A stretch of 64,000 bases of DNA from an uncultured virus (IMG/VR IMGVR_UViG_3300029309_000007) (IMGVR_UViG_3300029309_000007); one strand, 5' to 3'. Positions 2,913 through 30,178 are shown, counted from the first letter of the stretch. Numbers and translations: made by a program. The notes: a model not told the origin generated them from the sequence alone.

Positions 2913-4346
2913 ATGATAACAGGAACAGAACAACAAAAAGAAATATGGAAAGAAATGGAAGAAGGAGATAGCCACATGGTTATTGAAGCGGGTGCAGGTG
3001 TAGGAAAGACCTTTACAATTGTAGAGGGTTCTAACCGCGTTGATGCTACAAAGATTGGATTTTTGTGCTTTAACAAGTCCATTCAGAAGGAACTATCCAA
3101 CCGACTTCCCGAAAATGTAGAGGCAAAGACCTTTCACGCACTTGGTTTTGCGGCCATTCGTGCGGCAGGTATTCGCACAAAAGTGAACAATTACAAGACA
3201 AAGAACATCATTGATGATTACCACGGAAAAGATTTCAACTCTTTCCCATTGGCAAAACTAATCGGATTGATGAAAGGTTCAATGGTTGATGCTCACGATT
3301 TGCGAAACATTCGTTTTCTTATTGATAAGTATAACATTGAGTTTGAATCAACAAGAGAAGAAGATATAGCAATTGATTCCATTCCTGACATTATGGATGA
3401 ATGTCTAAAGCAAACGCATGTTATTGACTTTGATGACATGATTTGGCTTCCTCTTCAAAAGAATTTACCATTCCCATCATTTGATGTATTGTTTGTTGAT
3501 GAGGCCCAAGACTTCAATGAAATGCAACGAGAACTTATTTTCCGTTGTGTTAAAAACGGTCGTTGTATTGTTGTTGGCGACCCAAATCAAGCCATTTATG
3601 GTTTTCGAGGTGCTGACAGCAATTCAATGAATATCTTCAAGGAACAATTGTTGAAAACTAACCGAGGTGTTTCTGAGTTCCCGCTAAGTTTAACTTGGCG
3701 GTGTCCTAAATCGGTTGTTGCAGAAGCCAACCGATATGTGAAGGATTTCAATTGCTTGGAAACCGCAGAACAGGGAGCCGTTAAGGTCAATGCACCGTTT
3801 AAACCCGTTGAAGGCGACATGGTTCTTTGCCGATACAATGCGCCTTTGGTTAATGCTTTCTATGAGTTAATTCTTCAAGGAAAGTCGGCTTATGTTCTTG
3901 GTCGGGATATGACAAAGGGGCTTGTTAATTATGTGAACAAGATTACCCGCAACAAAAACATGGGTACGAAAGAATTTGTGCAGTTGCTTGAAAATGATTT
4001 CAATGTGTCTTACAATCGTTTGATGAAGGCAGATAAAATAAATCAAGCAAATACTCTTGAGGACAAATATAACTGCGTAAAGATTTTTGCCGCAAGAGCC
4101 GATACCGTGGGTGGAATCCTTGACGAAATCAAGCGTGTGTTTGATAACAACGAAAAGGGTGAAATTATGCTATCCACAGTTCACAAAGCAAAGGGACTTG
4201 AAGCAGACAATGTTTATATTCTCGCTACGGAAAGAATGCCTCATCCAAAGGCAACAAATCCAAGGGAGGAGCGAAACATTTGCTATGTGGCTATTACCAG
4301 AGCAAAAAAGAATTTGTTCTATTGTGGCCCAAAGCCTGGAAATTGA
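2913..4346 (+). CDS. UvrD/Rep-family SF1 DNA helicase
   Basis: AGAGVGKT Walker A, VDEAQD, VGDPNQAIYGFRGA, STVHKAKGLE, YVAITRAK. Confidence 0.95.
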   Translation: MITGTEQQKEIWKEMEEGDSHMVIEAGAGVGKTFTIVEGSNRVDATKIGFLCFNKSIQKELSNRLPENVEAKTFHALGFAAIRAAGIRTKVNNYKTKNIIDDYHGKDFNSFPLAKLIGLMKGSMVDAHDLRNIRFLIDKYNIEFESTREEDIAIDSIPDIMDECLKQTHVIDFDDMIWLPLQKNLPFPSFDVLFVDEAQDFNEMQRELIFRCVKNGRCIVVGDPNQAIYGFRGADSNSMNIFKEQLLKTNRGVSEFPLSLTWRCPKSVVAEANRYVKDFNCLETAEQGAVKVNAPFKPVEGDMVLCRYNAPLVNAFYELILQGKSAYVLGRDMTKGLVNYVNKITRNKNMGTKEFVQLLENDFNVSYNRLMKADKINQANTLEDKYNCVKIFAARADTVGGILDEIKRVFDNNEKGEIMLSTVHKAKGLEADNVYILATERMPHPKATNPREERNICYVAITRAKKNLFYCGPKPGN

Positions 4347-4361
4347 CACTCCAAGCATCCT

Positions 4362-4420
4362 GTGTTGAAGGTAAGTATGACTTCAGGAGAAATTGATACT
4401 CAAATGGGTGCAAAGCCCTA
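4362..4420 (+). ncRNA. putative structured cis-RNA motif, copy 1 (with insertion)
   Basis: GTGT..TGAAG/CTTCA stem..ATGAC..GGGTGCAAAGCCCTA. Related copies lie at 9000 and 26014. Confidence 0.45.
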
Positions 4421-4443
4421 AACAAAACATAGGAGAAATAAAA

Positions 4444-4680
4444 ATGATGATAACAAAAGAATTTGAAATTGAAATAAAAAGCAAGTATACAAGTGGAGAA
4501 GAACAGATTCTTTCTGAAGCAGAAAGAAAAATACATGTGATGGCACTTTGTATGCGAGATGCACTTAAAGAATACAAGAAGGGAAACTACCGAAAAGCAT
4601 ATCTTGAAATGCTATGTGTTGATTCTTGGGCAAAGCAAGCCACTAAAGAATTTAAGAGACTTTCGGAGGAAGAAGAATGA
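4444..4680 (+). CDS. hypothetical protein
   Basis: AGGAGA RBS before ATG 4444 (track ORF 4393..4680). Confidence 0.65.
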   Translation: MMITKEFEIEIKSKYTSGEEQILSEAERKIHVMALCMRDALKEYKKGNYRKAYLEMLCVDSWAKQATKEFKRLSEEEE

Positions 4681-4898
4681 AGTATGAAGAATTTATGAAA
4701 ATTACAGATAGATGGTCAGATAACGATAAAGTATGTTTCCTGATGGAATTTCCTGATTGGAACATCAGCATTCTTCAACATATATTGAATGAATGGCGAG
4801 AAGCAGATGATTATGCTATGGAAGTAGAAGAAATTGCTTTCTTTGCCAAAGATAATGGTATTTTGGAACACACTAATCTACCGGAGGAAGAAAAATGA
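4677..4898 (+). CDS. hypothetical acidic protein
   Basis: ATGA overlap and GGAGG RBS. Confidence 0.65.
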   Translation: MKYEEFMKITDRWSDNDKVCFLMEFPDWNISILQHILNEWREADDYAMEVEEIAFFAKDNGILEHTNLPEEEK

Positions 4899-5080
4899 TT
4901 TGCCTACACGATGATTATGAATTAACCGCAGAAGATTTAAGAATGATTGATGGTAGATTTAATGTAATTGACCAGCATTTTGTTTGTTTGGAATGCGGTG
5001 CGATTGGTGAAAGAACCTTCCGAATCCCTATTGAAATCGACTGGAACGGAAACCAACAAAAACTGCCCTTGGAGGAATAA
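4895..5080 (+). CDS. small zinc-binding protein
   Basis: CxH...CxxC pattern; coupled to the previous gene. Confidence 0.6.
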   Translation: MICLHDDYELTAEDLRMIDGRFNVIDQHFVCLECGAIGERTFRIPIEIDWNGNQQKLPLEE

Positions 5081-5082
5081 TA

Positions 5083-6159
5083 ATGGAAATTGAAATACAA
5101 GCAAGAAGAGAATTGGGAACTGGACATTGGGACAGGAAACTTATGAAGAACTTAGTTGAATTATCTACTGCTGATAATTATAACGAAGCAAAGGATGAAT
5201 GGATTGCCACCGGAAATGTTTGGTGGGAAGGAATGTCAGATACTCCCCCTTGGATGAAACATAGTGGCAAATGCCTTTGTGGACACGGAGTTAAATATCA
5301 TTTTCACATCCTAAATACTGAAAATGGAAATGAAGATGTTGTTGGTAGCGACCACATTAATACCTACATGATTCGCCGTGAAATTTCACTTTCTACCGGT
5401 ATCAGCGAAGAACTTATTACCGAGGAACAAATCAAAGAATGGATGAATGTCCGTATTGAATCTATGAAAGCAGATGCTTGGTGGAAAACAAACGGAGAGT
5501 GGTTTACAAAACAATTTGAAGATATTCGTGAATATGACCTTCGTATGAATGTGCGTGAAAAGAATATTGTTTGGAGCCAAAGCGAAGGAAAGTATGTTTA
5601 TGACACCGTTCTTCGTAAAAAGGGTTCAGGTAATCCTATGGATGCAGATTATGAAATGGCTTCTATTGTTTGGCGATGGAATCATCCTGAAAATTCCCGT
5701 AATCAAAGGGATGGTCGGGGTTATCCCAATGAAAAACTTCAGATGGATTTAGCAATCTTTTGGGCAAAGGTTCAGATGATGAAAGATGAGTTGATTTCAG
5801 AAGACCGAAAACTGGAAGAAATGACAAAAAGAGTTATTGAACAGCAGTCCACAACCTTTCAAGAAAGGCAACAGACAACCTTTGAGGAACGGTGTGCTTA
5901 TTTTGGCATCCCTGTCTTTGATTCGTCTTGGGGCTACAATGATTGGTCAAGGACATTCCTTGCCGATATTAAGCGTTTAATGACGCTTGGCAGGGATTTA
6001 TCGCAACCTCAACAGAACAATTTGTTGAAGATTATTCGGGGCAACCAAGCCACCGAAAAGCAAATGTCATACTTGCGAGATTTGGGCTATGATGGTGTTC
6101 AACACCTTTCAAAGTCAGAAGCATCTAATCTTATCAGCAAGTATTTGTTGGAGGAATAA
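5083..6159 (+). CDS. hypothetical protein with an N-terminal metal-binding motif and a C-terminal small helical domain
   Basis: CLCGH...VGSDH near the N-terminus. C-terminus reads ATEKQMSYLRDLG..LSKSEASNLI. Confidence 0.7.
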   Translation: MEIEIQARRELGTGHWDRKLMKNLVELSTADNYNEAKDEWIATGNVWWEGMSDTPPWMKHSGKCLCGHGVKYHFHILNTENGNEDVVGSDHINTYMIRREISLSTGISEELITEEQIKEWMNVRIESMKADAWWKTNGEWFTKQFEDIREYDLRMNVREKNIVWSQSEGKYVYDTVLRKKGSGNPMDADYEMASIVWRWNHPENSRNQRDGRGYPNEKLQMDLAIFWAKVQMMKDELISEDRKLEEMTKRVIEQQSTTFQERQQTTFEERCAYFGIPVFDSSWGYNDWSRTFLADIKRLMTLGRDLSQPQQNNLLKIIRGNQATEKQMSYLRDLGYDGVQHLSKSEASNLISKYLLEE

Positions 6160-7765: not shown

Positions 7766-8017
7766 ATGGTAGACTTAAATATCAAAAAAGCAGAAGAAAT
7801 GATTGAACAAATACATGCAATACTTAAAGATAGTTGTAGTCAAACTGAATCTTGGTCAGTTGACAACAGAGTTAAACTGTATAGGCTACATTTTATCAAG
7901 ATATATGTTGATAAAATGATTTATGGCACCTCTAATGACGAAGTAGAGGATATGTTTGCAGAATGGAGTATTCCCAGATTGATTAATAAAGAAAAACCAG
8001 ACGGATGGGAGGAATAA
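7766..8017 (+). CDS. hypothetical protein
   Basis: GGAGG RBS; member of a coupled gene run. Confidence 0.6.
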   Translation: MVDLNIKKAEEMIEQIHAILKDSCSQTESWSVDNRVKLYRLHFIKIYVDKMIYGTSNDEVEDMFAEWSIPRLINKEKPDGWEE

Positions 8018-8019
8018 AT

Positions 8020-8235
8020 ATGAAAGAAAAAGAAATAACGTTTACGAAGAAAGATGTAGAATCAATGTCATTCAGCAGAGGTTCTTATTATTATACCATT
8101 ACCTTTAGATTAAATGATGGGAAGCAACTTAGAGTTAGCCCAAATGAGTTAATGACTCTATTTAGGGCAAGTAATACTAAGAAGTTTAAAGCCTTTCTTA
8201 AGAGAAAATATTATCACTTGGAGAAATATATATGA
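8020..8235 (+). CDS. hypothetical protein
   Basis: Track ORF 8005..8235; RBS lies before ATG 8020. Confidence 0.6.
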   Translation: MKEKEITFTKKDVESMSFSRGSYYYTITFRLNDGKQLRVSPNELMTLFRASNTKKFKAFLKRKYYHLEKYI

Positions 8236-8492
8236 AAGTACCAAAAGGAAATGAAGATATGATAAAAAATAATAAGAAGTTTGTTCTAGACAACATGACG
8301 AAAATTCACACTAATTTGGTGTTTCAGAACGAGACTACTCTTGATTTTGATGAGTATATTATCGCTCTTGCCATGATTCCTCTTACTTTTGAGGAACAGG
8401 CAAATATGAGAGGAATGAATGGTATGCAAGAATTAATGCAGTTTTTGGCCGCGTTTTTGCAAACAATCCCTGTAAAGGAGGAATATAAATGA
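8232..8492 (+). CDS. hypothetical protein
   Basis: Coupled ORF with a GGAG RBS. Confidence 0.6.
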   Translation: MKVPKGNEDMIKNNKKFVLDNMTKIHTNLVFQNETTLDFDEYIIALAMIPLTFEEQANMRGMNGMQELMQFLAAFLQTIPVKEEYK

Positions 8493-8611
8493 TAGAATGT
8501 ATTAAATGTGATGCAATAGTCTTAGCCGCAACAGTTCATATTGGCCTACATAAATGCCATTGTCCTAAATGTGGTTATGAATTTTACCATCAAGAATATA
8601 TGGGGGAATAA
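8489..8611 (+). CDS. 40-aa zinc-ribbon microprotein (not in ORF track)
   Basis: MIECIKCDAIVLAATVHIGLHKCHCPKCGYEFYHQEYMGE; GGAGG RBS. Confidence 0.6.
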   Translation: MIECIKCDAIVLAATVHIGLHKCHCPKCGYEFYHQEYMGE

Positions 8612-8613
8612 AA

Positions 8614-8907
8614 ATGGAATGTATGAATTGTAATGGAACGGGATATATTTACAAAGAAGATAAAATTCATGATGTAATGGTGCGAGTAAAGTGCATTGAT
8701 TGTATGCTTGAGGAAAAAATAAAAGAAGAACTGCTTTCAAAAATGCAAGTTCTTTTGGCTTCTGTGAGTCCACAAATGCTTGCTCGTTATGCTTCTATCG
8801 CAATCATTCACGCTGCTTATCAAAAGAATAGTGCTGATGCGTTAGAGCAACAAGTTCAGTCCAAAAATAAAATAGGTCTTTTGACTTGGATTTCAACTTT
8901 GGATTGA
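8614..8907 (+). CDS. zinc-finger protein (CxxCxGxG...CxxC)
   Basis: CMNCNGTG and CIDC. Confidence 0.65.
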   Translation: MECMNCNGTGYIYKEDKIHDVMVRVKCIDCMLEEKIKEELLSKMQVLLASVSPQMLARYASIAIIHAAYQKNSADALEQQVQSKNKIGLLTWISTLD

Positions 8908-8913
8908 TACAAA

Positions 8914-8989
8914 GGGCGTATGGTGTAATTGGATAGCATTCTGGCCTTCTAAGCCGGAGATTCGGGTTCAAATCCTGATATGCCCGCCA
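8914..8989 (+). tRNA. tRNA-Arg(TCT)
   Basis: Acceptor stem GGGCGTA/TATGCCC, anticodon arm CTGGC-CTTCTAA-GCCGG, T loop TTCAAAT, encoded CCA. Confidence 0.95.
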
Positions 8990-8999
8990 ACTCAACAAA

Positions 9000-9046
9000 G
9001 TGTATAGGTTTCTTTTAAAATGACCTACGAATGGGTGCAAAGCCTA
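9000..9046 (+). ncRNA. putative structured cis-RNA motif, copy 2
   Basis: GTGTA-TAGGTT-9nt-ATGACCTA-CGAA-TGGGTGCAAAGCCTA, co-linear with the copy at 26014. Confidence 0.55.
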
Positions 9047-9060
9047 AAGGAGAAATAAAT

Positions 9061-9321
9061 ATGCAATTTTTAGCAGAAAAGAAAAAACCAGTAGAATTTA
9101 GGATAGTGGACGACGAGGAATTACCTCCCATTATCTTTACACAGAACGAAAATGACGAAGTAAAGGTTGTGATTAACACATATCACAAAATTTGGATTTG
9201 TCTGAACCGAAGAACAATTTTGGGTGCTTTAGATGCTTTAGGGGAAAAGATTGATACTATCTTAACTTCTCATCTATCCGACCAAAGAATGTTTGAAAAG
9301 CAGGATAGGGAGATGATTTGA
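9061..9321 (+). CDS. hypothetical protein
   Basis: AGGAGA RBS before ATG 9061. Confidence 0.65.
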   Translation: MQFLAEKKKPVEFRIVDDEELPPIIFTQNENDEVKVVINTYHKIWICLNRRTILGALDALGEKIDTILTSHLSDQRMFEKQDREMI

Positions 9322-9404
9322 ATGTTTAAGGGACTATTTAAATTTATTGCAATCATTAGCATTTTTGGCCCATTATTTTTTCTCATTCATGGTGGTGATG
9401 ATGA

Positions 9405-9563
9405 ATGGTGATAACAAAATGCTTTTGTGGCGTTTATGGACAAATGACAAATTGTGATTCTTGTGGAAAACCAATGTGCCGTAAGTGTGCAAAGCATGAA
9501 ATTGTACAAAACGAACTCTACATCAAACATAATGTTTGTTTGAAGAATAAACAAAAGAGGTGA
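9405..9563 (+). CDS. 52-aa B-box-like zinc-finger protein (not in ORF track)
   Basis: MVITKCFCGVYGQMTNCDSCGKPMCRKCAKHEIVQNELYIKHNVCLKNKQKR; GGTGA RBS. Confidence 0.6.
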   Translation: MVITKCFCGVYGQMTNCDSCGKPMCRKCAKHEIVQNELYIKHNVCLKNKQKR

Positions 9564-9655
9564 ATACCTATGAATAAAACAGAAACAGAAACAAAGAAGA
9601 ACGATGATGCCCTTTATATGGGTGAAGAACATGGAGAGAACAAGGAGGAAGCAGA

Positions 9656-9859
9656 ATGATAAAAATGCGGATTTTGAATGAGACAGGACACACCGAATTG
9701 ACTTTGGAATCATCCGAAGTGATTGAGCAAATTGAAACCCACCCTACTCATTGGGTTTTCATTGACGGTGAATTGATGGCAAGAGAATCAATCCAAGAGA
9801 TTGATTGGAATGTCGTTCAGTCTGTTGATTTAACGCCAGCAATCGTGGGCGGTCAATAA
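9656..9859 (+). CDS. ubiquitin-like (ThiS/MoaD/SAMP beta-grasp) protein with C-terminal GG-Q
   Basis: 67 aa; MIKMRI first strand, VFIDGEL, VDLTPAIVGG-Q; strong GGAGG RBS. Confidence 0.85.
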   Translation: MIKMRILNETGHTELTLESSEVIEQIETHPTHWVFIDGELMARESIQEIDWNVVQSVDLTPAIVGGQ

Positions 9860-9860
9860 A

Positions 9861-9902
9861 TCAGCATTTGCTGACTTCTACGGGGGAGGGGAACCTCCCC
9901 CT
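9861..9902 (+). terminator. two stem-loops after the Ubl gene
   Basis: TCAGCATTTGCTGA and GGGGGAGG-GGAA-CCTCCCC. Confidence 0.45.
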
Positions 9903-9919
9903 ATTTGGGGGGAGAAATA

Positions 9920-10294
9920 ATGGATTTAAAAAATTTTATATCTAAAGATGCTTTGCATCTAATGATTTCTTTAAATGGTTGGAAGCACCCCAGAACAAAA
10001 GAACTCGGAAATGTTTCGGTGTTTAAGCCGGACTTCTATGATACTGGGCATGTTATTGCTAAAACAGATAAAGCAATAATTCAAGCAAAGGGCTATACTG
10101 TCGTTCACTACAAAGAAAAAACATATTGTGATGTTGACGCTTTGTTAAAAGAACATGGTGTTGATGCAATACTTGATTTTAACAATTGGAATTTTGAAAT
10201 AGAAAAGGAATGGGTTATTTTTAAAGGTGGAGAATGGCAAACATCTTTCACAACTTTGGATAAACTTCCAAAGAAAACAAAATACCGTTGTTGA
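9920..10294 (+). CDS. hypothetical protein
   Basis: GGAGA RBS before ATG 9920. Confidence 0.65.
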   Translation: MDLKNFISKDALHLMISLNGWKHPRTKELGNVSVFKPDFYDTGHVIAKTDKAIIQAKGYTVVHYKEKTYCDVDALLKEHGVDAILDFNNWNFEIEKEWVIFKGGEWQTSFTTLDKLPKKTKYRC

Positions 10295-10610
10295 TGCTAT
10301 GTTATCGTATGATGAAATGAAATTGGTTTGTATTTCATATATGGATGATTTTTCCAGAATCAATCAAAATAGATTGATGAGAACCATTGATTTATGCGAT
10401 ACAAACGGCGATGAAAGAGAAAAGAAGTTTCTTTTGAACAGCACACTTAACATTGTTCTTTGGGACTTTGAAGATGCAGTTCAAATGGGATTTCACAAAT
10501 TTCTCAAAACTAAATTTGTAGAAAGACATGAAGCAATTCAATACCATGAGGCCAACAAACAAGATTGTTCGGGTTGTAAAATTTGTAGAATACAGGCGAT
10601 GGTCTTATGA
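10227..10610 (+). CDS. hypothetical protein with C-terminal CxxCxxC (start uncertain)
   Basis: Track ORF ending in ..DCSGCKIC.. Confidence 0.55.
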   Translation: MENGKHLSQLWINFQRKQNTVVDAMLSYDEMKLVCISYMDDFSRINQNRLMRTIDLCDTNGDEREKKFLLNSTLNIVLWDFEDAVQMGFHKFLKTKFVERHEAIQYHEANKQDCSGCKICRIQAMVL

Positions 10611-10774
10611 AAGAAAAAGACCCTGAATATCAAAAAAGCCATTGGTCTTACAAAAATAGGGTAGCAACCCGTTGTAGGATATGTGGAGGGCAATTAATTT
10701 TGCCAGAAGAATGTAGGGCAGAAATGCACCAAGAATGTAAAAAAAATATCAAAGATAACACATATATGATGTGA
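10607..10774 (+). CDS. 55-aa zinc-finger microprotein (not in ORF track)
   Basis: ..TRCRICGGQLILPEECRAEMHQECKK..; ATGA overlap. Confidence 0.6.
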   Translation: MKEKDPEYQKSHWSYKNRVATRCRICGGQLILPEECRAEMHQECKKNIKDNTYMM

Positions 10775-10778
10775 TAGA

Positions 10779-11975
10779 ATGAATGAAAGAAAATTAGAAT
10801 TTAGAATTAGAAAACCAAACGATTCAGGAGAATATTGGACTGTTCCTGCAAGTATTCAGTCCATTGGCGATGATACTTCAATGTTGTTTAAAATTAGTAG
10901 AAACAGATATACTGCTAGTCCAAATCGACAATCAAAAGACCCCGTTCTCGGTGGTATAAATTATATGTTTCGTGATTTACTACAAATCAGGAGAAGAAGA
11001 AAATATACTTATTCGACTCAACCTGCGGAATATAAGGGCATTTTAAAAATTAAAGACTTGCCTATTATGATATCTAAAACAGACATTAGATATGAGATAA
11101 ATGGAAAAGCACAGTCATTAAATACTATTTGTAGTGTCTTAGCGAGAGTCTTATTCAAAGCAACAACGACGGATGACACGAATGCTTTGATGAAGACTTT
11201 ATATTCTCATTTAGATATTCCTGAACAAGTTAGATATGCTATTGAAAACAAAGTACCATATCACTTTTTCCATGAATTTGAAAAACATGAGGTTCGCCTC
11301 AATATTCAACAGATTGATTCTGATGAATATGCCATTGAAGTTAGCGATGGTGTTTGGGGAACAATGGCTACAAAAGATGTAGTAGTTTTTGTCAATACTT
11401 ATCTACACGGTCATAAAAGAGGAAATTGGCATAGAGTTTCACCACAAAGCCTTTATGAGAGAACCGTTGGCAAAAAACCATCCGAATCTGATATTAAGGT
11501 CATGCGGGAATTCCTAAAACAGAACAGAACCTCTGCCATTGTAGAGCAAAGAGCAAGAGATTTAGTACAAGAAATGGAAATCCAATACAAAGAAAGAATT
11601 GAAGTGCGATGGGATAATAATAATATGCCAGAAAAAATCTTTGTTCGTGGAAATCAATACGATTGGTTGCTTACTTCAAGAGGCTATAAACAAAACTTTC
11701 AAATGGTTTCAACCTTTATCTGGCAACCAAGATGTGTTGAGATGAAAAAGGGCGATACTGAAGAAGACTTAATACCTCGATGGCAAGGGCCAATTTGTAT
11801 TGATAATATGAATAGTGATTCTTCTCTTGGTGACCAATTTGCCGCAAGAGTTCTAGCCTTCATAAATGATAATATGACTATAAAAATAGTGAACACAATT
11901 AGAAGCAGAATAACAACAGAACCAAATGAATGTAGAGTGGATAAAAATGATGTGTCAAGAATGTGGAATGAATGA
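10779..11975 (+). CDS. 398-aa protein with a GPICID Cys motif (E2-like or DUF4132-C-terminal-like; unresolved)
   Basis: IFVRG..WQGPICID..SLGDQFAARVLAFIND. No HPN motif. Confidence 0.7.
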   Translation: MNERKLEFRIRKPNDSGEYWTVPASIQSIGDDTSMLFKISRNRYTASPNRQSKDPVLGGINYMFRDLLQIRRRRKYTYSTQPAEYKGILKIKDLPIMISKTDIRYEINGKAQSLNTICSVLARVLFKATTTDDTNALMKTLYSHLDIPEQVRYAIENKVPYHFFHEFEKHEVRLNIQQIDSDEYAIEVSDGVWGTMATKDVVVFVNTYLHGHKRGNWHRVSPQSLYERTVGKKPSESDIKVMREFLKQNRTSAIVEQRARDLVQEMEIQYKERIEVRWDNNNMPEKIFVRGNQYDWLLTSRGYKQNFQMVSTFIWQPRCVEMKKGDTEEDLIPRWQGPICIDNMNSDSSLGDQFAARVLAFINDNMTIKIVNTIRSRITTEPNECRVDKNDVSRMWNE

Positions 11976-12798
11976 ATTTAAATTTAACGAGACTCTTGGA
12001 GAAACTGAATGTCTTTCTTGTGGACTTATTGTTCATAATGAGCCATTTGAAGAGCGTGTTAGTATCGTGAACAACGGTGTTTTAAAGCATAGTAGAGACA
12101 AGAAAAACCAATTAGGTTCAATTATTACAGGAAAGGGGTCGTATAAATATACGAAAAGAGGAAACAATACTGCTATCCCAACCCATATTACAAGAGCATT
12201 ATCTCTCTGTAAAATGGTGTTAGCGTCTGTTGTAGAAAATAGTCCCTTGACTGATAGAGTAGAAGAAGTGTATTTAGAATTGCAGAAGAAAAATATCTTC
12301 GGAAATCAAACTCTTGAAAATAGAGCAACTGCGGTTGTGCATTATGTTTTACGAGAAAACAAAACTCCTTTGCCGATTAAGGAAATCACCAAGGAGTTTA
12401 ACTGCAACCAAAAATCAGTCAAGAAACTAGTGAGGAAGATTGGCGGGTTCTATAAAAATAGAACCCTATATGCTCAAGCAGACCCACATTTTTTATTGTC
12501 GCAAACTGTTGTTAAAATTACAGATGACCCGTTCTTTTTGAGTCTTTGTGAAGAAACGATGAAAGCCCTTGAGCCAATCTTAGAAAGGGCAGACTATAAT
12601 AAAACACCGAGTTATTACGCTTGCGTTGCTTGGATTACCAAGAACATAAATCTGTATTCTTCAATTACTGTATCTAAGATTTCAAAGGCTACTGGAATCC
12701 ATAGAGCAACCATTTTTAAGAATACAAAAAATATCATCGCCTTTCTGGGATATACCGATGTAAAAGAAATGAAAGGAAAGAAAATTAAGGAGGAATAA
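11947..12798 (+). CDS. tfb: transcription initiation factor TFIIB/TFB homolog
   Basis: N-terminal Zn ribbon CQECG..GETECLSCGLIV, followed by two cyclin-fold-like repeats (AVVHYVLRE..PIKEI; ITVSKISKATGIHRATI). Confidence 0.85.
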   Translation: MMCQECGMNEFKFNETLGETECLSCGLIVHNEPFEERVSIVNNGVLKHSRDKKNQLGSIITGKGSYKYTKRGNNTAIPTHITRALSLCKMVLASVVENSPLTDRVEEVYLELQKKNIFGNQTLENRATAVVHYVLRENKTPLPIKEITKEFNCNQKSVKKLVRKIGGFYKNRTLYAQADPHFLLSQTVVKITDDPFFLSLCEETMKALEPILERADYNKTPSYYACVAWITKNINLYSSITVSKISKATGIHRATIFKNTKNIIAFLGYTDVKEMKGKKIKEE

Positions 12799-13219: not shown

Positions 13220-13567
13220 ATGAAAACAATAGAAATCAAAGTGCCATGTGAAATACATGGATTAGAAATATACCATAGTGAAGGCGGTAAAGATTACTGC
13301 GAAGAATGTATGGTAGAAAGAATTGAAAACCAACTTGAAGGATATTCATTAAACACTATCGCTAGATGGATTCATAAGAACGCTAATTTAGATGCTGATT
13401 GGTGGACTATTTTCAAATATGCCCAGTCTTATCACATTGAAGAACTTGACGGGGTTATTTTGAATCCTGAATTTTATTCAAAGTTCTTGAAAAGCAAGCA
13501 AAAAAGATTCATTAGATTAAATAAGGGAGAATATCTTGCAGAAGAAATTGATAAGGAGGAATATTAA
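13220..13567 (+). CDS. zinc-finger protein
   Basis: CEIH...YCEEC. Its stop overlaps the E1 start. Confidence 0.65.
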   Translation: MKTIEIKVPCEIHGLEIYHSEGGKDYCEECMVERIENQLEGYSLNTIARWIHKNANLDADWWTIFKYAQSYHIEELDGVILNPEFYSKFLKSKQKRFIRLNKGEYLAEEIDKEEY

Positions 13568-14124
13568 TGAGAAAAGTATTAGTAATTGGAGCAGGTGGAA
13601 TTGGAAGTTTTCTAATTCCTACATTAGATAAAGTTGGTCTTTACCGAATTAGTGTAGCAGACCCCGATACAGTAGAAACAAAGAATCTACCGTATCAAAA
13701 TTTTAAGAAAGGCCATGTTGGTCAGAATAAAGCACAAGTTATGATGGATTCATATGAATCTGTGGCAACTTTCAGCAAGTTCCCAGTTTTGACAGAAAAG
13801 CAAATGTCAGGATATGACCTTGTAGTTTGTTGTGTTGATAATTTGAGCGTGAGAAGAACCCTTTACAATTCAAATGTAAAGTGGTTAGATTTGCGAGCGC
13901 AGGGAAGAAATGCGGCTTTGGTTAGTTTTTTGGCTGATGCAAAAATGTATGATACTTTGCTTGCAGGAAAAGACGGCTCATTTAGTTGTCAAGGAGATTC
14001 ATGGGATGGTTCAAATAAGGGAGTCCATTTCATGCAAGTCGCTATCGCTGGCTTGGGCGCACAATGGGCGCAACGATTCTTTAACCAAGAAGAAGTAAAA
14101 GAATATATGGTACTAAATGCATAA
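13567..14124 (+). CDS. ThiF/MoeB/E1-family ubiquitin-like activating enzyme
   Basis: VLVIGAGGIGS, DPDTVETKNLPYQ, VGQNKA, CCVDNLSVR; candidate catalytic Cys in FSCQG. Confidence 0.92.
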   Translation: MRKVLVIGAGGIGSFLIPTLDKVGLYRISVADPDTVETKNLPYQNFKKGHVGQNKAQVMMDSYESVATFSKFPVLTEKQMSGYDLVVCCVDNLSVRRTLYNSNVKWLDLRAQGRNAALVSFLADAKMYDTLLAGKDGSFSCQGDSWDGSNKGVHFMQVAIAGLGAQWAQRFFNQEEVKEYMVLNA

Positions 14125-14136
14125 GGAGAGATAATT

Positions 14137-14724
14137 ATGGCAGGAAAAAAGAAAAGAGAAATATACAAATGGACTGATGAACAAGTGAAGTTTTTGTTAG
14201 ACAAGCCCCCCAACTATACTTGGGTAGATTTTGCAAAAATAATGAACAAAACCTTTAATGTGAATAGAAATACGGGTTCTGTTTATGCTAAATACAAAAA
14301 AGAGAAAATGCTCAGAAATCTGGCTAGTGAAAAAGATGAAGCGCAAGAGGCTATAAAAGAACCAATTTCTGAGCCGGATGAGCCGAGATTTTCTCGGACT
14401 CGTAAGCGATGGACTCCACAGGAGGAATTAGAGGTTTTGGTGAACTTTTATTCGCTTTCTGTTGATGAAGCGAGAGAGCGATGGCAAAGGCCGTATAGAG
14501 CAATCGCAGGGCGATTAGAGTCTATTTGCGATATGACAGAACCTCATCACGAATCGCTACTTATGGAGGCCGCTAAGATAGTCAAACAAAAGGAGGCTAT
14601 GAAGCGTAAGCCAACCCGAAAGGAGCGAAAATTGGCTAAGAGAGCCGCAAAAATAGCCAAAAAGCAAGACCGCTTGGCGAAGAAAATCCAACACTTAGAG
14701 AGAGGAATGAAGAATGACAGATGA
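14137..14724 (+). CDS. Myb/SANT-like HTH repeat protein with a basic tail
   Basis: YKWTDEQVKFL and KRWTPQEELEVL repeats. Confidence 0.65.
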   Translation: MAGKKKREIYKWTDEQVKFLLDKPPNYTWVDFAKIMNKTFNVNRNTGSVYAKYKKEKMLRNLASEKDEAQEAIKEPISEPDEPRFSRTRKRWTPQEELEVLVNFYSLSVDEARERWQRPYRAIAGRLESICDMTEPHHESLLMEAAKIVKQKEAMKRKPTRKERKLAKRAAKIAKKQDRLAKKIQHLERGMKNDR

Positions 14725-15262
14725 AATAATAAATCAGAGATTTGAGGCTTGTCGCCATGTTGAAGATGTTTGGACTCAATGTTTGTTAAACAGTTCAAAT
14801 ACTGTTAAAAACAGAGATTTTCGCCATGTTGAAGATTCAGAACACATGGTTCCTTTGCACGATGCTATTTGGTATGCTTCTACGGAAATTTTACCAAACC
14901 TTGAAGTGCAAGCAATCATTGATGCAAAAAACGACATCTATGTTTCAACAGGGACAGCAGGATATGTTGATTATTTGACGATTGACCCGAATCTTTTGAC
15001 GGGAATGAAATTGCCAATTAAATGTTGGATTCATACTCATCCATTTGGCTCGGCATATTTCAGTGGAACTGATTGGCGCACGATTAAAATTTGGAAAGAG
15101 AATTTGACTTGTGCTTATGTTCTTGGTGGAAAAATGTCCACTGATGCACATTATGGTTTTTGGAAAAACAATCGTCCAAATGAACTTGAAATTTATGTTG
15201 ATGGCGAACATGAAAAAACACAAAAATTGATACTAGTACCATTAAAGGAGGAAGAAGAATGA
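14714..15262 (+). CDS. JAB/MPN+ (JAMM) metalloprotease
   Basis: E(VQAII)...WIHTHPFGSAYFSGTD matches E-xn-HxH-x7-S-x2-D. Confidence 0.9.
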   Translation: MTDEIINQRFEACRHVEDVWTQCLLNSSNTVKNRDFRHVEDSEHMVPLHDAIWYASTEILPNLEVQAIIDAKNDIYVSTGTAGYVDYLTIDPNLLTGMKLPIKCWIHTHPFGSAYFSGTDWRTIKIWKENLTCAYVLGGKMSTDAHYGFWKNNRPNELEIYVDGEHEKTQKLILVPLKEEEE

Positions 15263-24780: not shown

Positions 24781-25992
24781 ATGGAAGAAAAAATAAAGAC
24801 AGCAATTGAAAAGAGTCTGCAATATCTGAATGTCTCTTTTGATGAAGCACATCAAAAGTTCGTCAGTATTTGTGAAGAAAATAATGTCGGACAAGAAGAA
24901 CCTTTGGCTTTGAGCCTTTGGCGAAATTATGTCTCTCAAGGCATTAAGGCAAGTAAGCGTGGAAACAACAATCAAGGAAACGACTCCTTGACAAAGCAAG
25001 TTTTTGGTGCTTTTATTGCCCTTGAAGCACCAAGAGATATGATGGCATGGAACCGAACAAAAGCAATAGAAGAACATATCCGTGATTCGGACAAAGCCCT
25101 TCAAGAAGGAATTGTTGCGGTGGCTACTGAAAACGCTTTGGGTAAGTGGACTATTTCTCGGTATTTCAAAGGCGATTACCAAGAAAAGGTCGTAAATGAC
25201 TTACCGGAAGGTGCGGAAGAAGTTGCCGGTGAAATGGTTATTCCTCTTGATTCTACGGAACGCTACATGAATGGTGGAGAAAACAGAAATTTCGGTAAGC
25301 CCCTACCAAAAGAACAATTCCGCCGAAGCGGTATTTTCTATGGTTCTATCAATGGAGGAGATTTTTCTGTATATCAATTCTCATATAAGAATCAAGGCGG
25401 CATAGATTTCCAACCAAAGACATTTGATTGGGTGCATTTTACTGCGATTCCAAGCGAAGATGGAAAGAACATCTATGGTATGACTGACATTACTCTTAAA
25501 ACTTTGATTCGCAACGATGATTTAGACCCTGAAAATTCAGCCTACCGAAACATGGGACACTTTAATTTCCAAGACTTGCTGGTTGAATCTTTTAACAACA
25601 ATGTTTGTGCATTGGTTGATGTTGATAGAAAGCACATTGAAATGCAGACTCTCCCATCAAGAGAGCGTTTTGTTATTACTGATGGAACTGTGTGCAATAT
25701 GAATATGACACCAACCTCAAATGGAAACCGTATTTTAAACATCACTGATTTGAATGCAGAATTTGACTATGAAAATGAAGCAGGAATGACCACTTGCTGG
25801 ATTCCTGAGCATTTGGATATTGACTTTGGTATTGGTTCTAATATCATTGTTATTGGAAGAACCTCTCAAAGAATTATTGATGGTGAAGCAGACCCAGTGA
25901 CAATTAATGTGTCATCTATTCTAATTACAGAAAAACGCGGTTCTCCTGTTGAATCAGTTCAACCTGTGGAGGAAAACTACGATTGGTTCTGA
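24781..25992 (+). CDS. RPA-like OB-fold ssDNA-binding protein
   Basis: C-terminal OB-like region (ITDGTV..LNITD..FGIGSNIIVIGRT), acidic-aromatic tail EENYDWF, replisome context. Confidence 0.65.
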   Translation: MEEKIKTAIEKSLQYLNVSFDEAHQKFVSICEENNVGQEEPLALSLWRNYVSQGIKASKRGNNNQGNDSLTKQVFGAFIALEAPRDMMAWNRTKAIEEHIRDSDKALQEGIVAVATENALGKWTISRYFKGDYQEKVVNDLPEGAEEVAGEMVIPLDSTERYMNGGENRNFGKPLPKEQFRRSGIFYGSINGGDFSVYQFSYKNQGGIDFQPKTFDWVHFTAIPSEDGKNIYGMTDITLKTLIRNDDLDPENSAYRNMGHFNFQDLLVESFNNNVCALVDVDRKHIEMQTLPSRERFVITDGTVCNMNMTPTSNGNRILNITDLNAEFDYENEAGMTTCWIPEHLDIDFGIGSNIIVIGRTSQRIIDGEADPVTINVSSILITEKRGSPVESVQPVEENYDWF

Positions 25993-26013
25993 TTCCCTCT
26001 CTTATGGGAAGCC

Positions 26014-26060
26014 GTGTAAATGTTGGCGGCAGAATGACATTCAAGTAGGTGCGAAGCCTA
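26014..26060 (+). ncRNA. putative structured cis-RNA motif, copy 3
   Basis: GTGTA-AATGTT-9nt-ATGACATT-CAAG-TAGGTGCGAAGCCTA. Confidence 0.55.
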
Positions 26061-26074
26061 TAAAGGTGATTCAT

Positions 26075-26521
26075 ATGAATTTAGAAAAGGATATTATTGA
26101 GACTAGGAGAGCAATTGGAAACTTAAATCAGGTTTCTCATATTTCTTGGTCGCACTATAAAGATGGCGAATTTGATGTAAAATTGCATTTTTCTGGAGAC
26201 AGAATTATTCAAAGAATGTCAAAGGATGATTTAGATATTCTTAAAGATAACTTTAAGAATTTACAAAGAAAAGAAACGATGGTTGATAGATTGGAATTGC
26301 AGGATTCAATCGGAGAACTATTCTTGGAGAATGGTTTTCTTGAGCATCCTCGCAAATGGTCTGTTGATTTATCGGAAGTAGAGTTTATTTCTTTTAAACA
26401 AAACGATGAAAACTTTACTTATTTTGTGAAACTGCATATCAAAGCAAAAGAGATTAGACTCTATTTGGGAACGATGGAAGAAGTGGAACAATTAATTGAA
26501 ATATGGAAACAATACAGGTGA
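26075..26521 (+). CDS. hypothetical protein with an internal duplication (PH-like beta-meander plus helix)
   Basis: NLNQVSHISW..FDVKLHF versus DLSEVEFISF..YFVKLHI; AAGGTGA RBS. Confidence 0.65.
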   Translation: MNLEKDIIETRRAIGNLNQVSHISWSHYKDGEFDVKLHFSGDRIIQRMSKDDLDILKDNFKNLQRKETMVDRLELQDSIGELFLENGFLEHPRKWSVDLSEVEFISFKQNDENFTYFVKLHIKAKEIRLYLGTMEEVEQLIEIWKQYR

Positions 26522-26525
26522 GAAT

Positions 26526-27335
26526 ATGAGCCTAATAAATAAAAAAGGAAATGCAAATACAATGAATTTTGGAGCGAAGCAAGAGGAGTTTAACAATAAG
26601 TTTCAACAACTCATGGCTGAAAAAAGAGCGAACAGAAAGTCAAGACTTGTTCTTGGAATTTGGGGAGAACCCAAAACTGGAAAGACTGGTATTGCCTTAG
26701 ATTTTCCCGACAGAAAAATTTATGTTCTTGATTGGGATAGTGGCGTGGAATCCACATGGATTGAATGCCACGATGCTACGGAAAGAATTGAAGTTTATGA
26801 CCCTATCGTTATGGATAGAGATAATAAGATTGACATTACACAGTCAGAAGAAAATTCTCATAACTTCATACGATATGTTCGTGGAAAAATAGAAGAAGGA
26901 GAAAAGCCGATATTTGTGATGGATGGTGTGGATTCTTGGTTTGACAAGTGTATTTACAAAGTTAATCCTAATCCTACCGTGGTCACGAAAATGATGCCAT
27001 ATCAATATGGGCCGAGAAATAAAACCTTCTATCATCTATTGCAGGCAATCTTTAATCTTAAGTGTGATGTGATTTATATTACTCACGAAGCAGAAAAATA
27101 TGTGGATAATACTCCTACTGGAATTAAACCTGCATGGAAGGATTGGGGCGGAAAGTTAGAACAAGAAATATATTGTTCTAAAAAGAAAGTAAAAGGAGAA
27201 ATGCACTTCTTTGCAGAATTGTATGGTTCTAGGACGAATGGAAACAAAGTCGGAACACGCTGGACTATTCGTGAAGGAACGCCACCTAATATCGTTTGGA
27301 ACGGTATTCCTGATTTACAGGAGGGTAAGATTTGA
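26526..27335 (+). CDS. RecA-fold P-loop ATPase (AAA_24/Sak4-like)
   Basis: GIWGEPKTGKT, VLDWDSG, VMDGVD, YITH. Confidence 0.75.
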   Translation: MSLINKKGNANTMNFGAKQEEFNNKFQQLMAEKRANRKSRLVLGIWGEPKTGKTGIALDFPDRKIYVLDWDSGVESTWIECHDATERIEVYDPIVMDRDNKIDITQSEENSHNFIRYVRGKIEEGEKPIFVMDGVDSWFDKCIYKVNPNPTVVTKMMPYQYGPRNKTFYHLLQAIFNLKCDVIYITHEAEKYVDNTPTGIKPAWKDWGGKLEQEIYCSKKKVKGEMHFFAELYGSRTNGNKVGTRWTIREGTPPNIVWNGIPDLQEGKI

Positions 27336-28100: not shown

Positions 28101-29771
28101 ATGATAATTAGCAGATGCATTGACAATAAAACAATATACACATCATGGAGAGAAAATGGCGAAAAGAAGGTAGCGGTTGAATTATTCGCACCATACTTCT
28201 ATTTGCCAGAAGATGCCCAAGAATTTGAAGAATACAAAATCGGTCGGGCCTCTTCTCGGCCTTTTCGTTATGAACATGGAAATTGGGTAAATCTTCAAGA
28301 AGAAAAACTTAAGCGTGTTTATGTTGAGCAATCAACAGATATTTACAATGCCAAGAAAATGTGGCCTAAAACATACGAAGCAGATGTTCCGTATCATTTC
28401 CGATATGCCGTGGATAAAATTGATGAAATGCCAGAATATAAACTGCGAAAGTGGTATTGGGATATGGAATGGCAACAAGGCGGCGAATATCACGATTGCA
28501 TTACAACAATTGTTGTTTATGATAACTACGATGAAAAGTATTACCAATGGTCATGGTTTCCCGAAGATGAATGGGTTCCGAATAAGCAACTTCAAACAAC
28601 TGATAATTTTCAGACAGGTTTTTGCTTTTCAGAAAAAAAGATGATTGAAAGTTTTATTTCTTTTATGACAGAAAAAGACCCTGATATGTTGATTTCTTGG
28701 TTTGGAAATTTTGCTGATGTGCCAATGTTGCTTAAGCGATGTTGTGCATTGGGAATCAACCCCTTGCAGTTATCGCCCATTGGCCGTGTAGAGGGCGTTA
28801 AAAGGACTTCTAAAGGCTTTGAATACACTAAAGGCGACGAAGGGTTCTCTTCAATCAAACAGCCCATAGGGGGCCGCATAACCCTTAACTTAGACCATGC
28901 TTTTGAAAGACAATGGAATGATTCGCAAAGAGGAACTTTGCCTTCTTTGGCTCTTGATTATGTTTCTTCCCTTTTGTTTGGCGAAGGAAAATCCAAAGAA
29001 ACAAAGTTTGCAGACCCTAACGAATTCTATCGTAGGGCTTGGTTGGAGGACACACTAAACTATTTAGATTATGCACTTCAAGATGTTAAACTTCTTGTTA
29101 AAATTGATGAAACGAACTTTTGTAGTGAAGCAATTATTTCATTACAGCGTTTGCTAAAAGCCCCATTCGATGCTTGCTTTTTCGCTTCGCACATGGGTTC
29201 AATTTATTTTATGCGAAATGCTTGGTGGAAAGCCCCAACAGGAAAGAAAGTAGAAAAGCGTGAAGAATATGACGGTGCTATGATTTATGACCCATTAAGC
29301 GAACAAACTCAGGGCTTACATCTTAATGTAGCGGCATTTGACTTTGCAGGGCTATATCCAAGTATGATGATTTCAAGAAACATTTCATGGGAAACAAAGT
29401 CAGAAGAACCGACAGAATTTGCCGTGAATATCTTAACGCCGAGAGACTTCAGCGATGTTAAACATGAGAAGATGTTGTATTACAAAACAGATAAACTTGG
29501 ACTTCTACCAAAGGCTGTTCTTGAATTAAAAGAGTTGCGAAACGAATACAAGGCTCTCTTAAAAGAAGCGAGAAAGAATGCGGATGAAGAAGAGGTTATC
29601 AAATGGAATAATAATCAAATGGCTGTAAAGCGTTTGATGGCTTCATTTTATGGCATTGTTGCCTTTCAAGGATTTGGATGGGCAGATGTTTCTTTAGCCG
29701 CAAGCATTACTGCAAGTGCAAGAGAAGCAATTAGATTAGCGGCATTTAAGGCTAAGGAGATGAATATATGA
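28101..29771 (+). CDS. polB: family B DNA polymerase, N-terminal part (3'-5' exonuclease, motifs A and B)
   Basis: WDME, FADVPML, YALQDV, FDFAGLYPSMMISRNIS, KRLMASFYG. Confidence 0.93.
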   Translation: MIISRCIDNKTIYTSWRENGEKKVAVELFAPYFYLPEDAQEFEEYKIGRASSRPFRYEHGNWVNLQEEKLKRVYVEQSTDIYNAKKMWPKTYEADVPYHFRYAVDKIDEMPEYKLRKWYWDMEWQQGGEYHDCITTIVVYDNYDEKYYQWSWFPEDEWVPNKQLQTTDNFQTGFCFSEKKMIESFISFMTEKDPDMLISWFGNFADVPMLLKRCCALGINPLQLSPIGRVEGVKRTSKGFEYTKGDEGFSSIKQPIGGRITLNLDHAFERQWNDSQRGTLPSLALDYVSSLLFGEGKSKETKFADPNEFYRRAWLEDTLNYLDYALQDVKLLVKIDETNFCSEAIISLQRLLKAPFDACFFASHMGSIYFMRNAWWKAPTGKKVEKREEYDGAMIYDPLSEQTQGLHLNVAAFDFAGLYPSMMISRNISWETKSEEPTEFAVNILTPRDFSDVKHEKMLYYKTDKLGLLPKAVLELKELRNEYKALLKEARKNADEEEVIKWNNNQMAVKRLMASFYGIVAFQGFGWADVSLAASITASAREAIRLAAFKAKEMNI

Positions 29772-29968
29772 ATAAGTTCTTTGCAGAAAAGATTTTAATT
29801 ATATTAGAAAACATGGATGGTCAGTTCACAGCCAACCAAGTTAGAGATAGAGTAATTAACCAATTTGGACACATGCACTATATAGAAAACACTACATCAG
29901 TTGGTGCGTTCTTAGGAAGGTATTGTGTCAATTTGGGAAATAGAATGTGGACAAAAAAGGAGGAATAA
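29768..29968 (+). CDS. small wHTH-like protein between the PolB halves
   Basis: FTANQVRDRV..TTSVGAFL..W. Confidence 0.55.
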   Translation: MNKFFAEKILIILENMDGQFTANQVRDRVINQFGHMHYIENTTSVGAFLGRYCVNLGNRMWTKKEE

Positions 29969-29970
29969 TT

Positions 29971-30174
29971 ATGGATAAATCAGAAAAATATTATTTGGAA
30001 ACGATGAAAGAAATCAAGGAGATTAAGAAATTTATCAAAGAGGAGATAGATTCTCTTTATGCAGATTTACAAAATCTGCAAGAAACTCGTCGCTTGATTA
30101 CAGAATTGCAGGAAGAAGTAGCAAAACTCGCAGGTGAACCTGTCGGTATGTTGTTTTCAAAATACCGAGCGTGA
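29971..30174 (+). CDS. small coiled-coil protein between the PolB halves
   Basis: GGAGG RBS; heptad-like sequence. Confidence 0.55.
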   Translation: MDKSEKYYLETMKEIKEIKKFIKEEIDSLYADLQNLQETRRLITELQEEVAKLAGEPVGMLFSKYRA

Positions 30175-30178
30175 AACT

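Follow-up and report, generated by a model that had tools for sequence, protein, structure and literature searches.

A family of pseudoknotted RNAs conserved at ribosome-binding sites in magroviruses

What is the sequence of about 47 nt that recurs directly upstream of three ribosome-binding sites in a genome fragment of an uncultured virus, and what does it do there? The window, i.e. the whole stretch of DNA analyzed here, is 64,000 nt long, and its initial annotation, made from the sequence alone, proposed that the three copies form a structured and possibly undescribed RNA. Few structured regulatory RNAs are known from archaea, and none was found for archaeal viruses in the literature searched. 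Because the Marine Group II host of this virus is uncultured, conserved non-coding elements are among the few handles on viral gene control.

Gene content identifies the window as a group B magrovirus, whose hosts are Marine Group II archaea; magroviruses are abundant and widespread ocean viruses. The major capsid protein encoded in the window matched tailed archaeal viruses only (11 of 11 records, 19-27% identity), and the matching records were Haloarcula viruses and methanogen-associated viruses. Replication and chaperone genes include GroEL, an ATP-dependent ligase, clamp-loader subunits and a family B DNA polymerase (PolB) in two genes. In the published description, the same gene set is given for group B magroviruses, which are assigned to Marine Group II Euryarchaeota (PMC5434244). 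The marks of that group were all found in the window, namely a halovirus-like capsid, split PolB, GroEL, ligase, clamp loader, tRNA-Leu and tRNA-Arg. PolB is encoded in two parts, 28101-29771 and 30134-31132, which are separated by two small ORFs (29768-29968 and 29947-30174), an arrangement that agrees with the description of group B1 magroviruses. A cultured phage collection gave no DNA match to positions 8000-12000 of the window and no protein match to the 403-aa gene that precedes the third copy. The tRNA genes are as follows.

2408-2492: tRNA-Leu, the second tRNA of the window
8914-8989, + strand: tRNA-Arg (TCT) with an encoded CCA, called by ARAGORN and by the Rfam tRNA model (58.8 bits), directly 5′ of copy 2

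The motif is an H-type pseudoknot, in which the loop of helix S1 holds the 5′ half of helix S2, followed by a hairpin, P3. From 5′ to 3′, its strands are arranged as the 5′ strand of S1, loop L1, the 5′ strand of S2 (5 nt), L2 (1-2 variable nt), the 3′ strand of S1, linker L3, the 3′ strand of S2, a junction, and P3, with a total length of about 50-65 nt. Exactly three copies are present in the 64 kb, all on the + strand.

4364-4425, + strand: copy 1, long form; S1 4365-4370 with 4381-4386; L1 (GTA) 4371-4373; S2 5′ half 4374-4378 with 3′ half 4396-4400 (AGTAT/ATACT); L3 4387-4395; P3 GGG 4406-4408 with CCC 4416-4418, loop TGCAAAG 4409-4415
8995-9052, + strand: copy 2, short form; S1 AAAG 8997-9000 with CTTT 9012-9015; L1 (TGTA) 9001-9004; S2 TAGGT 9005-9009 with ACCTA 9023-9027; P3 9032-9035 with 9043-9046, loop TGCAAAG 9036-9042; Shine-Dalgarno sequence (SD) AGGAG 9048-9052
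26009-26066, + strand: copy 3, short form, the main locus of the family; S1 26011-26015 with 26026-26030; L1 (GTA) 26016-26018; S2 AATGT 26019-26023 with ACATT 26037-26041; P3 26045-26049 with 26057-26061, loop TGCGAAG 26050-26056; SD AGGTGAT 26064-26070

The sequences quoted in the initial annotation were found where it had placed them in all three copies, but its model of two consecutive hairpins has to be replaced by the pseudoknot. What it called stem 1 is a real pairing in copies 2 and 3, where it corresponds to S2, whereas the TGAAG/CTTCA pairing that it assigned to the same stem in copy 1 is S1; the counterpart of S2 in copy 1 is AGTAT/ATACT. The knot was missed because S2 of copies 2 and 3 had been equated with S1 of copy 1. 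The minimum free energy (MFE) fold of copy 1 recovers S1 and P3.

All three copies are intergenic, as had been noticed, and occupy some of the few long spacers (97, 71 and 82 nt) of a densely packed gene array. Copy 1 follows a UvrD-type helicase gene, copy 2 follows tRNA-Arg and copy 3 follows the 403-aa gene. S1 of copy 2 begins 8 nt past the encoded CCA of tRNA-Arg, in agreement with the earlier placement of this copy just behind the tRNA. The end of P3 is separated from the SD (GGAG, AGGAG and AGGTGAT) by 13, 1 and 2 nt in copies 1, 2 and 3, respectively, and the start codons that follow are ATG at 4444, 9061 and 26075.

An exact search of the 64 kb for the 11-nt core GGTGCRAAGCC gave three sites (4407, 9034 and 26048). 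When one mismatch was allowed, five matches were obtained versus 0.89 expected, and 1 of 100 shuffles reached five. Two covariance models recovered the same copies. Model R1, which consists of S1 and P3, was built from a seed of window copy 1 and 34 sequences of other viruses (35 in all), which excluded copies 2 and 3. It found the unseeded copy 3 at 32.6 bits (E 5e-6) and the unseeded copy 2 at 25.1 bits (E 4e-4), and the next-best match in the window had 12.4 bits (E 0.7); the 76 bits of copy 1 are those of a seed member. Model R2, which consists of S2 and P3 and was built from short forms, scored copy 1 at 18.1 bits (E 0.001), copy 2, a seed member, at 48.5 bits and copy 3 at 63 bits, and all other matches in the window had E values of at least 0.19.

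Homologs were collected from viral contigs. A 14-mer scan returned mostly chance or coding matches and about eleven obvious homologs; a degenerate 17-mer scan returned 72 loci, of which 50 by inspection carried the motif and 22 fell in five unrelated sequence groups; and a gapped pattern scan returned at least 120 loci. A search with the 403-aa protein gave 307 relatives, the best 80 of which were examined with their flanks. These synteny-defined loci were chosen without reference to the RNA, and the motif was present at the same spot, at most 260 nt past the 403-aa gene, in all of the best 80 of the 307. GGTGCNANGCC was kept in 80 of 80, and S2 was fully paired in the standard register in 74, the other six having a one-nt shift or one mismatch. 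Over all DNA collected from related viruses, at least 148 distinct motif sequences were obtained. On this comparative sequence evidence, the motif family is real, conserved and specific to magroviruses.

Copy number is low, with one or two model matches per 87-96-kb genome in 18 related records. Five copies were found in one longer record (G010, 184,733 nt), and three of these mirror the spacing and contexts of the window, including the orthologous copy after tRNA-Arg (L314). Two different counterparts of the 403-aa gene are present in G010 (loci L213, L251, L297, L309 and L314-L316), with 83% and 58% identity to the gene in the window, and the record may be two magrovirus genomes joined in assembly. 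The core was absent from the nearest record to the window, an 11.8-kb fragment (G001). In a pattern scan of 185,579 species genomes, four loci were returned, and only one (L291) was a true motif. This locus lies on a 4,095-nt contig (NZMJ01000161.1) binned with a bacterial Maricaulis genome, and is probably a mis-binned magrovirus fragment.

The alignments of distinct instances show which parts of the motif are fixed. L1 is GTA in 144 of 148 distinct instances, and the 6-nt fixed junction segment after S2 starts with CA or CG in all 148. The 3′ end of the junction supplies the outer P3 pairs, which leaves 2-5 nt unpaired, the first two of them conserved. P3 itself has a helix of 3-7 bp with two invariant inner G-C pairs and a 7-nt loop, TGCRAWG; the loop is TGCGAAG or TGCAAAG in 143 of 148, although it was partly fixed by the search pattern. 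Long forms, such as copy 1 of the window, have an S1 of 6 bp and an L3 of 8-13 nt, typically GGAGAAATTG. In short forms, to which copies 2 and 3 belong, S1 has 3-5 bp and L3 has 3-6 nt with AATG at its end. At least three contiguous S1 pairs could be formed in 145 of 148 instances when a register shift of up to 3 nt was allowed. The middle three letters of the 3′ strand of S2 vary freely, and this strand is not SD-like. P3 ends 3-31 nt (median 18) before the ATG, and the SD lies 0-13 nt past P3. An apparent correlation between the lengths of S1 and L3 (rho 0.68 in fixed register) fell to 0.10 (p = 0.24) when the shift was allowed and was discarded as not robust.

Two further elements lie on the 5′ side of some long forms. 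By eye, the sequences suggest a possible additional helix, P0, whose 5′ strand in the window would be CTCC at 4349-4352 (+ strand), 3 nt past the helicase stop codon (4344-4346), with its complement GGAG at 4386-4389 at the start of L3. Relatives have the combinations CTCC/GGAG, TTCC/GGAA, TTCCTC/GAGGAA and CTCTA/TAGAG. The helix was statistically weak, with shuffles reaching its length at a median frequency of 0.40 and a swap test giving 4.58 for own and 3.74 for cross pairings, and it is kept as a candidate. Separately, 22 distinct loci (L220, L221, L246 and 19 others) carry a conserved insert of about 100 nt just 5′ of the long-form motif, between the upstream stop codon and S1 (e.g. L144:657-773:-), which is absent from the window. 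The insert resembles a second, diverged pseudoknot-plus-hairpin module in tandem with the motif. One of its helices, Ha, joins CCC[G/C]TAG with TTG[C/G]GG, and one of its pairs is CG in 12 and GC in 10; the other, Hb (AATGTCG with CGACATT), crosses Ha and is 100% paired and nearly invariant. The insert also contains an invariant TATGATG segment, and it had no Rfam match.

Covariation was examined in two MAFFT alignments made without regard to the structure, one of 35 long forms (A3) and one of 32 short forms, mostly from the synteny set (A6). In the long forms, 96.7% of cells were paired and 10 of 14 pairs showed compensatory change. The covariation score was 0.605, compared with 0.219 for shuffled alignments (0 of 500 reached the observed score) and 0.03-0.10 when the partners were slid by 1-3 columns. 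The five inner S1 pairs were 89-100% paired (92% for the helix overall) and S2 was 100% paired; P3 is invariant in this alignment because the search pattern had fixed it. In the short forms, 83% of cells were paired and the score was 0.342 versus 0.141 shuffled (again 0 of 500). Here S2 was 100% paired with three covarying pairs, and P3 had five covarying pairs, e.g. pair 38-52 (UA 15, GC 10, AU 2, GU 2) and pair 39-51 (AU 23, GU 5, GC 3). S1 was weak in the largest short-form subgroup, which has three pairs only (U-G, G-C, U-G). RNAalifold applied to 19 full spacers independently gave S2 and P3. The S1 loop thus pairs with a segment 3′ of its hairpin, as in an H-type pseudoknot, and covariation supports both helices.

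G-U pairs were found in all helices of both alignments. Each of the 148 distinct instances is in sense orientation to an ORF of 40 aa or more that starts at most 70 nt away. The tolerance of G-U pairs together with the strict strand bias indicates that the structure exists in RNA rather than in DNA. The initial annotation had named homologs without covariation as the finding that would speak against a structured RNA; in both the long and the short forms the homologs do covary, and the proposal of a structured RNA is borne out as an RNA-level fold with covariation in three helices and a score that none of 500 shuffles reached. Six stretches were folded as single sequences. The spacer of copy 3 had a z-score of -2.7, and the other five, namely all three cores and the spacers of the first two copies, had about -0.1 to -1.4 (at most -1.66). 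These folding energies are unremarkable, and the case for the motif is the comparative evidence.

The genes flanking the motif are listed here.

4444-4680, + strand: gene after copy 1, encoding a 78-aa protein; SD GGAG 4432-4435
9061-9321, + strand: gene after copy 2, encoding an 86-aa protein; its ortholog follows the orthologous motif copy in G010
24781-25992, + strand: conserved 403-aa gene 5′ of the main motif locus, ending in ...EENYDWF and the stop codon
26075-26521, + strand: gene after copy 3, encoding a 148-aa protein with two PH-like domains

Behind copies 1 and 3, the first gene overlaps or abuts the next and so stands at the head of a gene block. The gene after copy 1 heads four tightly packed genes (4444-4680, 4677-4898, 4895-5080 and 5083-6159), and the gene after copy 3 overlaps the next gene (26496-27335, an AAA_24/Sak4-like ATPase), with a 255-aa gene and the split PolB close behind. 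None of the three downstream proteins (78, 86 and 148 aa) had a Pfam, PHROG or NCBIfam match, and the 403-aa protein had no match in these databases or among PDB sequences. AlphaFold2 predicted for the 148-aa protein two six-stranded sheets, each capped by a helix (mean pLDDT 75.8), and the best Foldseek matches of this model were the tandem PH domains of FACT subunits and Rtt106 (E 5e-4 to 1e-2); the ESM Atlas returned nothing informative for this protein.

Across the family, 139 of 148 distinct instances precede one small acidic PH-fold protein family, with membership defined by an HMM from an alignment of the family (A5) at E 1e-3 or better. In the window, this HMM matches the 148-aa protein alone, in which two such domains are fused. 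Family members have a median pI of 5.3, and 14 of 139 are net positive. In 27 of the 139 instances the upstream context was other than the usual gene end in ...DWF and a stop codon, which indicates that the RNA is tied to the downstream gene. The remaining nine instances precede unrelated small genes: five follow a helicase gene (window copy 1, L156, L158, L188 and L206), one is L384, and three begin some 8 nt past a tRNA gene, which is tRNA-Arg for window copy 2 and L314 and a tRNA-Arg/tRNA-Leu pair for L311. A weaker R2 match (L312, E 2.9e-4), for which the core was not recovered, lies beside the same tRNA pair. On its predicted fold, the 148-aa tandem PH-like protein could be a chromatin-related factor of an archaeal virus whose Marine Group II host possesses histones. 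Its relatives are single-domain and acidic.

The motif is an uncatalogued RNA family, new as a family and in its host range, and in kind it is a pseudoknotted leader RNA. At the gathering threshold, Rfam 15 recognized only the two tRNAs in the whole window. A permissive search (E up to 10) of nine homologous loci and copies 1 and 3 gave chance-level matches only (E at least 0.5), at 7-26 bits compared with gathering scores of 35-90. The Rfam 15 models of twister, twister-sister, pistol, hatchet, HDV-like, preQ1, SAM-II and xrRNA families did not match, so the resemblance to twister and twister-sister loops mentioned in the initial annotation finds no support in these models. Its suggestion of an undescribed RNA holds up at both thresholds, for a motif that is absent from Rfam 15 and has at least 148 distinct instances in related viruses. 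The main texts of openly available papers included none that joins the word magrovirus with pseudoknot or riboswitch, and nothing relevant was found among the papers listed on archaeal viruses and riboswitches or on Poseidoniales and RNA.

Several known RNAs are nevertheless similar in architecture. Like preQ1-I and SAM-II riboswitches, the motif is a small H-type leader pseudoknot with a short L1, an A-rich L3, conserved loop letters and an adjacent ribosome-binding site. In those riboswitches the SD forms part of the second helix of the pseudoknot, whereas S2 of the motif is not SD-like and the SD lies 0-13 nt past the extra hairpin P3; in addition, the motif is from an archaeal virus and its gene context suggests no ligand. 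Pistol ribozymes, which occur in virus-rich marine sequence, also have a hairpin loop that pairs downstream, followed by another hairpin, but their extra helix encloses the 3′ strand of the pseudoknot and the second hairpin. No such enclosing helix was found in the motif, nor did the Rfam pistol model match it even at E values as high as 10. Exoribonuclease-resistant RNAs of flaviviruses and plant viruses (xrRNAs) are compact pseudoknots, sometimes in tandem, that set a stable RNA 5′ end, and motif copies after tRNAs would likewise sit at 5′ ends generated by processing. These RNAs are located in 3′ regions of RNA viruses and share no sequence or model similarity with the motif, for which resistance is hypothetical and suggested by analogy.

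P3 resembles a tRNA T-arm, with a 7-nt loop closed by G-C, U at position 1, C at 3, a purine at 4 and A at 5. A 7-nt G-C-closed loop with U1 and A5 was present in 80 of 80 synteny-defined loci (GGTGCNANGCC). The loop TGCAAAG, closed by GG/CC, equals the T-loops of the virus's own tRNA-Arg and tRNA-Leu (TTCAAAT) in five of seven letters, and the label T-loop-like given to it earlier is fair in that respect. Position 2 is G, not U, and the motif lacks the acceptor, D and anticodon arms of a tRNA. The two genuine tRNAs are the only calls made by ARAGORN and the Rfam tRNA model, neither of which recognizes the motif. RNAalifold prefers a U-G closing pair and a 5-nt loop for P3, unlike a T-loop. 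The leaders of T4 gene 32, thrS and rpsO offer another parallel, as each places a pseudoknot or tRNA-like fold at the ribosome-binding site and is tied to one gene. These operators are bound by the gene's own basic nucleic-acid-binding protein, whereas the protein downstream of the motif is acidic and PH-like.

With its fold, conservation, position and gene association observed as described above, the motif most likely controls the expression of the genes it precedes. Three features argue that it acts in cis on the message that follows it: its constant placement at the SD, its bias to the sense strand and its gene association. We tentatively favor a cis-acting leader that would gate translation via a bound factor, where we infer both the effect on translation and the factor binding. 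The motif would be transcribed within a polycistronic or tRNA-linked transcript, which would fold into a compact H-type pseudoknot (L1 = GUA, A-rich L3) joined to the T-arm-like P3 with the loop UGCRAWG. This rigid fold would be set 3-31 nt 5′ of the start codon, against the SD of the first gene of the block. A trans-acting factor, either a protein recognizing the T-arm-like hairpin or a small ligand, may bind the invariant unpaired nucleotides of the motif, and its binding would set the loading of the small ribosomal subunit. Control could reach the PH-fold gene and, via the close packing of genes, the replication genes behind it. Two switch-like mechanisms were considered, and neither gained support from these analyses. 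For sequestration of the SD, enforcing the motif changed the modeled accessibility of the SD little and in no consistent direction (0.42 versus 0.46 unpaired; 19 up, 9 down and 51 unchanged of 79). For a helix enclosing the motif from flank to SD, scores were no better than those of controls (own 5.54, swapped 5.44, shuffled 5.23), despite striking examples in L226 and L239 (CACCTTTT with AAAAGGTG) and 8-9 bp in window copy 1 and L156. Against a factor-gated leader, no candidate ligand or binding protein emerged from the analysis, the encoded PH-like fold is not a known RNA-binding fold, and the copies behind tRNAs fit protection of an RNA end equally well.

The main rival, which we regard as possible though rather doubtful, is a processing or stability element whose fold would define or protect the 5′ end of the downstream message. 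By analogy with known RNAs, it might act as a self-cleaving ribozyme, as a nuclease site addressed through the T-arm-like hairpin by a tRNA-processing or other host enzyme, or as a knot that blocks 5′-to-3′ exonucleases. In four records (the window, L314, L311 and L312) the motif lies about 8 nt after a tRNA gene, and 3′ processing of the tRNA would make it the 5′-terminal part of the message. The tRNA-Leu of the window also has a long hairpin behind it, followed by an SD and an ATG: within 2493-2596, arms 2502-2508 and 2560-2566 (GGTCGGG...CCCGACC) enclose an inner GAGACAA/TTGTCTC pairing, and GGAG (2584-2587) and ATG (2596) follow. That both tRNAs of the window are followed by a structured RNA and a ribosome-binding site is as expected if the folds cap 5′ ends generated by processing. 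The compact fold with conserved unpaired letters, the tandem second pseudoknot-like module at 22 distinct loci and the failure to detect an SD switch fit this explanation as well. Ribozymes and general stabilizers, however, are usually less tightly tied to one gene family, whereas 139 of 148 instances of the motif are so tied, with only one to three copies per genome. Moreover, the Rfam models of ribozymes and exonuclease-resistant RNAs gave no match to the motif at E values up to 10, and no upstream processing site is evident at the main locus.

If the PH-fold protein itself were the bound factor, it would repress its own leader and the other messages that carry a copy, like T4 RegA or the gene 32 protein. 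The PH-like family lies behind 94% of the motif instances (139 of 148), the additional copies in front of other small genes resemble a small regulon, and the order of clamp loader, unknown gene, motif, small protein and polymerase recalls the T4 order 45-44-62-regA-43. We nevertheless consider such autoregulation improbable because of the charge and fold of the encoded protein: these proteins are acidic (median pI 5.3, net positive in 14 of 139), their predicted fold is nearest to the double PH domains of histone chaperones, which are not RNA binders, and Pfam, PHROGs and NCBIfam assigned them to no RNA-binding family. A signal at the DNA level (promoter, operator or origin element) or a chance similarity would account for intergenic, promoter-like positions near gene starts, but is very improbable. 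G-T pairs keep the helices where the opposite strand would have A-C mismatches, and the pseudoknot topology, the strict strand bias and the compensatory changes in three helices all argue for RNA. Three exact cores compare with 0.89 matches expected even with one mismatch, and no TATA-like box was seen when the three window spacers were read by eye. Our order of preference is thus a factor-dependent translational leader, then processing, ribozyme activity or 5′ protection, then autoregulation, with DNA-level function or chance far behind; part of the probability is assigned to none of these.

Whatever the outcome, the motif would add a new class to the RNA catalogue, and it can serve as a sequence marker for magrovirus contigs. 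It would be an easy target in vitro because it is small, sharply defined, found in every relative examined and available in natural long, short and tandem versions. It is conceivable, although we hold it unlikely, that the motif represents the first known case, in an archaeal virus, of a ligand-sensing riboswitch or, alternatively, of an RNA knot that blocks exonucleases or processes itself; in that case it would time or protect expression of the replication block, and its T-arm-like hairpin would recruit or mimic the host tRNA machinery.

The scans also returned a second virus group in which 13 contigs, about 7-54 kb long (L126, L129, L134, L135, L139, L141, L152, L154, L162, L164, L174, L176 and L189), share the exact 17-mer ATGGGTGCAAAGCCCTA, although its surroundings differ from those of the motif and it is flanked by ACTTAG...CTAAGT. 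By a rough estimate about 56 chance matches are expected, so this sharing may be chance, or it may reflect a common hairpin module. Within the window, a protein with a TFIIB-type zinc ribbon and HTH domains (11926-12798) is possibly a viral transcription factor B-like protein. A ThiF-family protein is encoded at 13567-14124 and a weak JAB-domain match, below Pfam's cut-off (E 8e-4), at 14714-15262; as neighbors, the two would suggest a ubiquitin-like modification pair. The window also encodes an ERCC4 nuclease.
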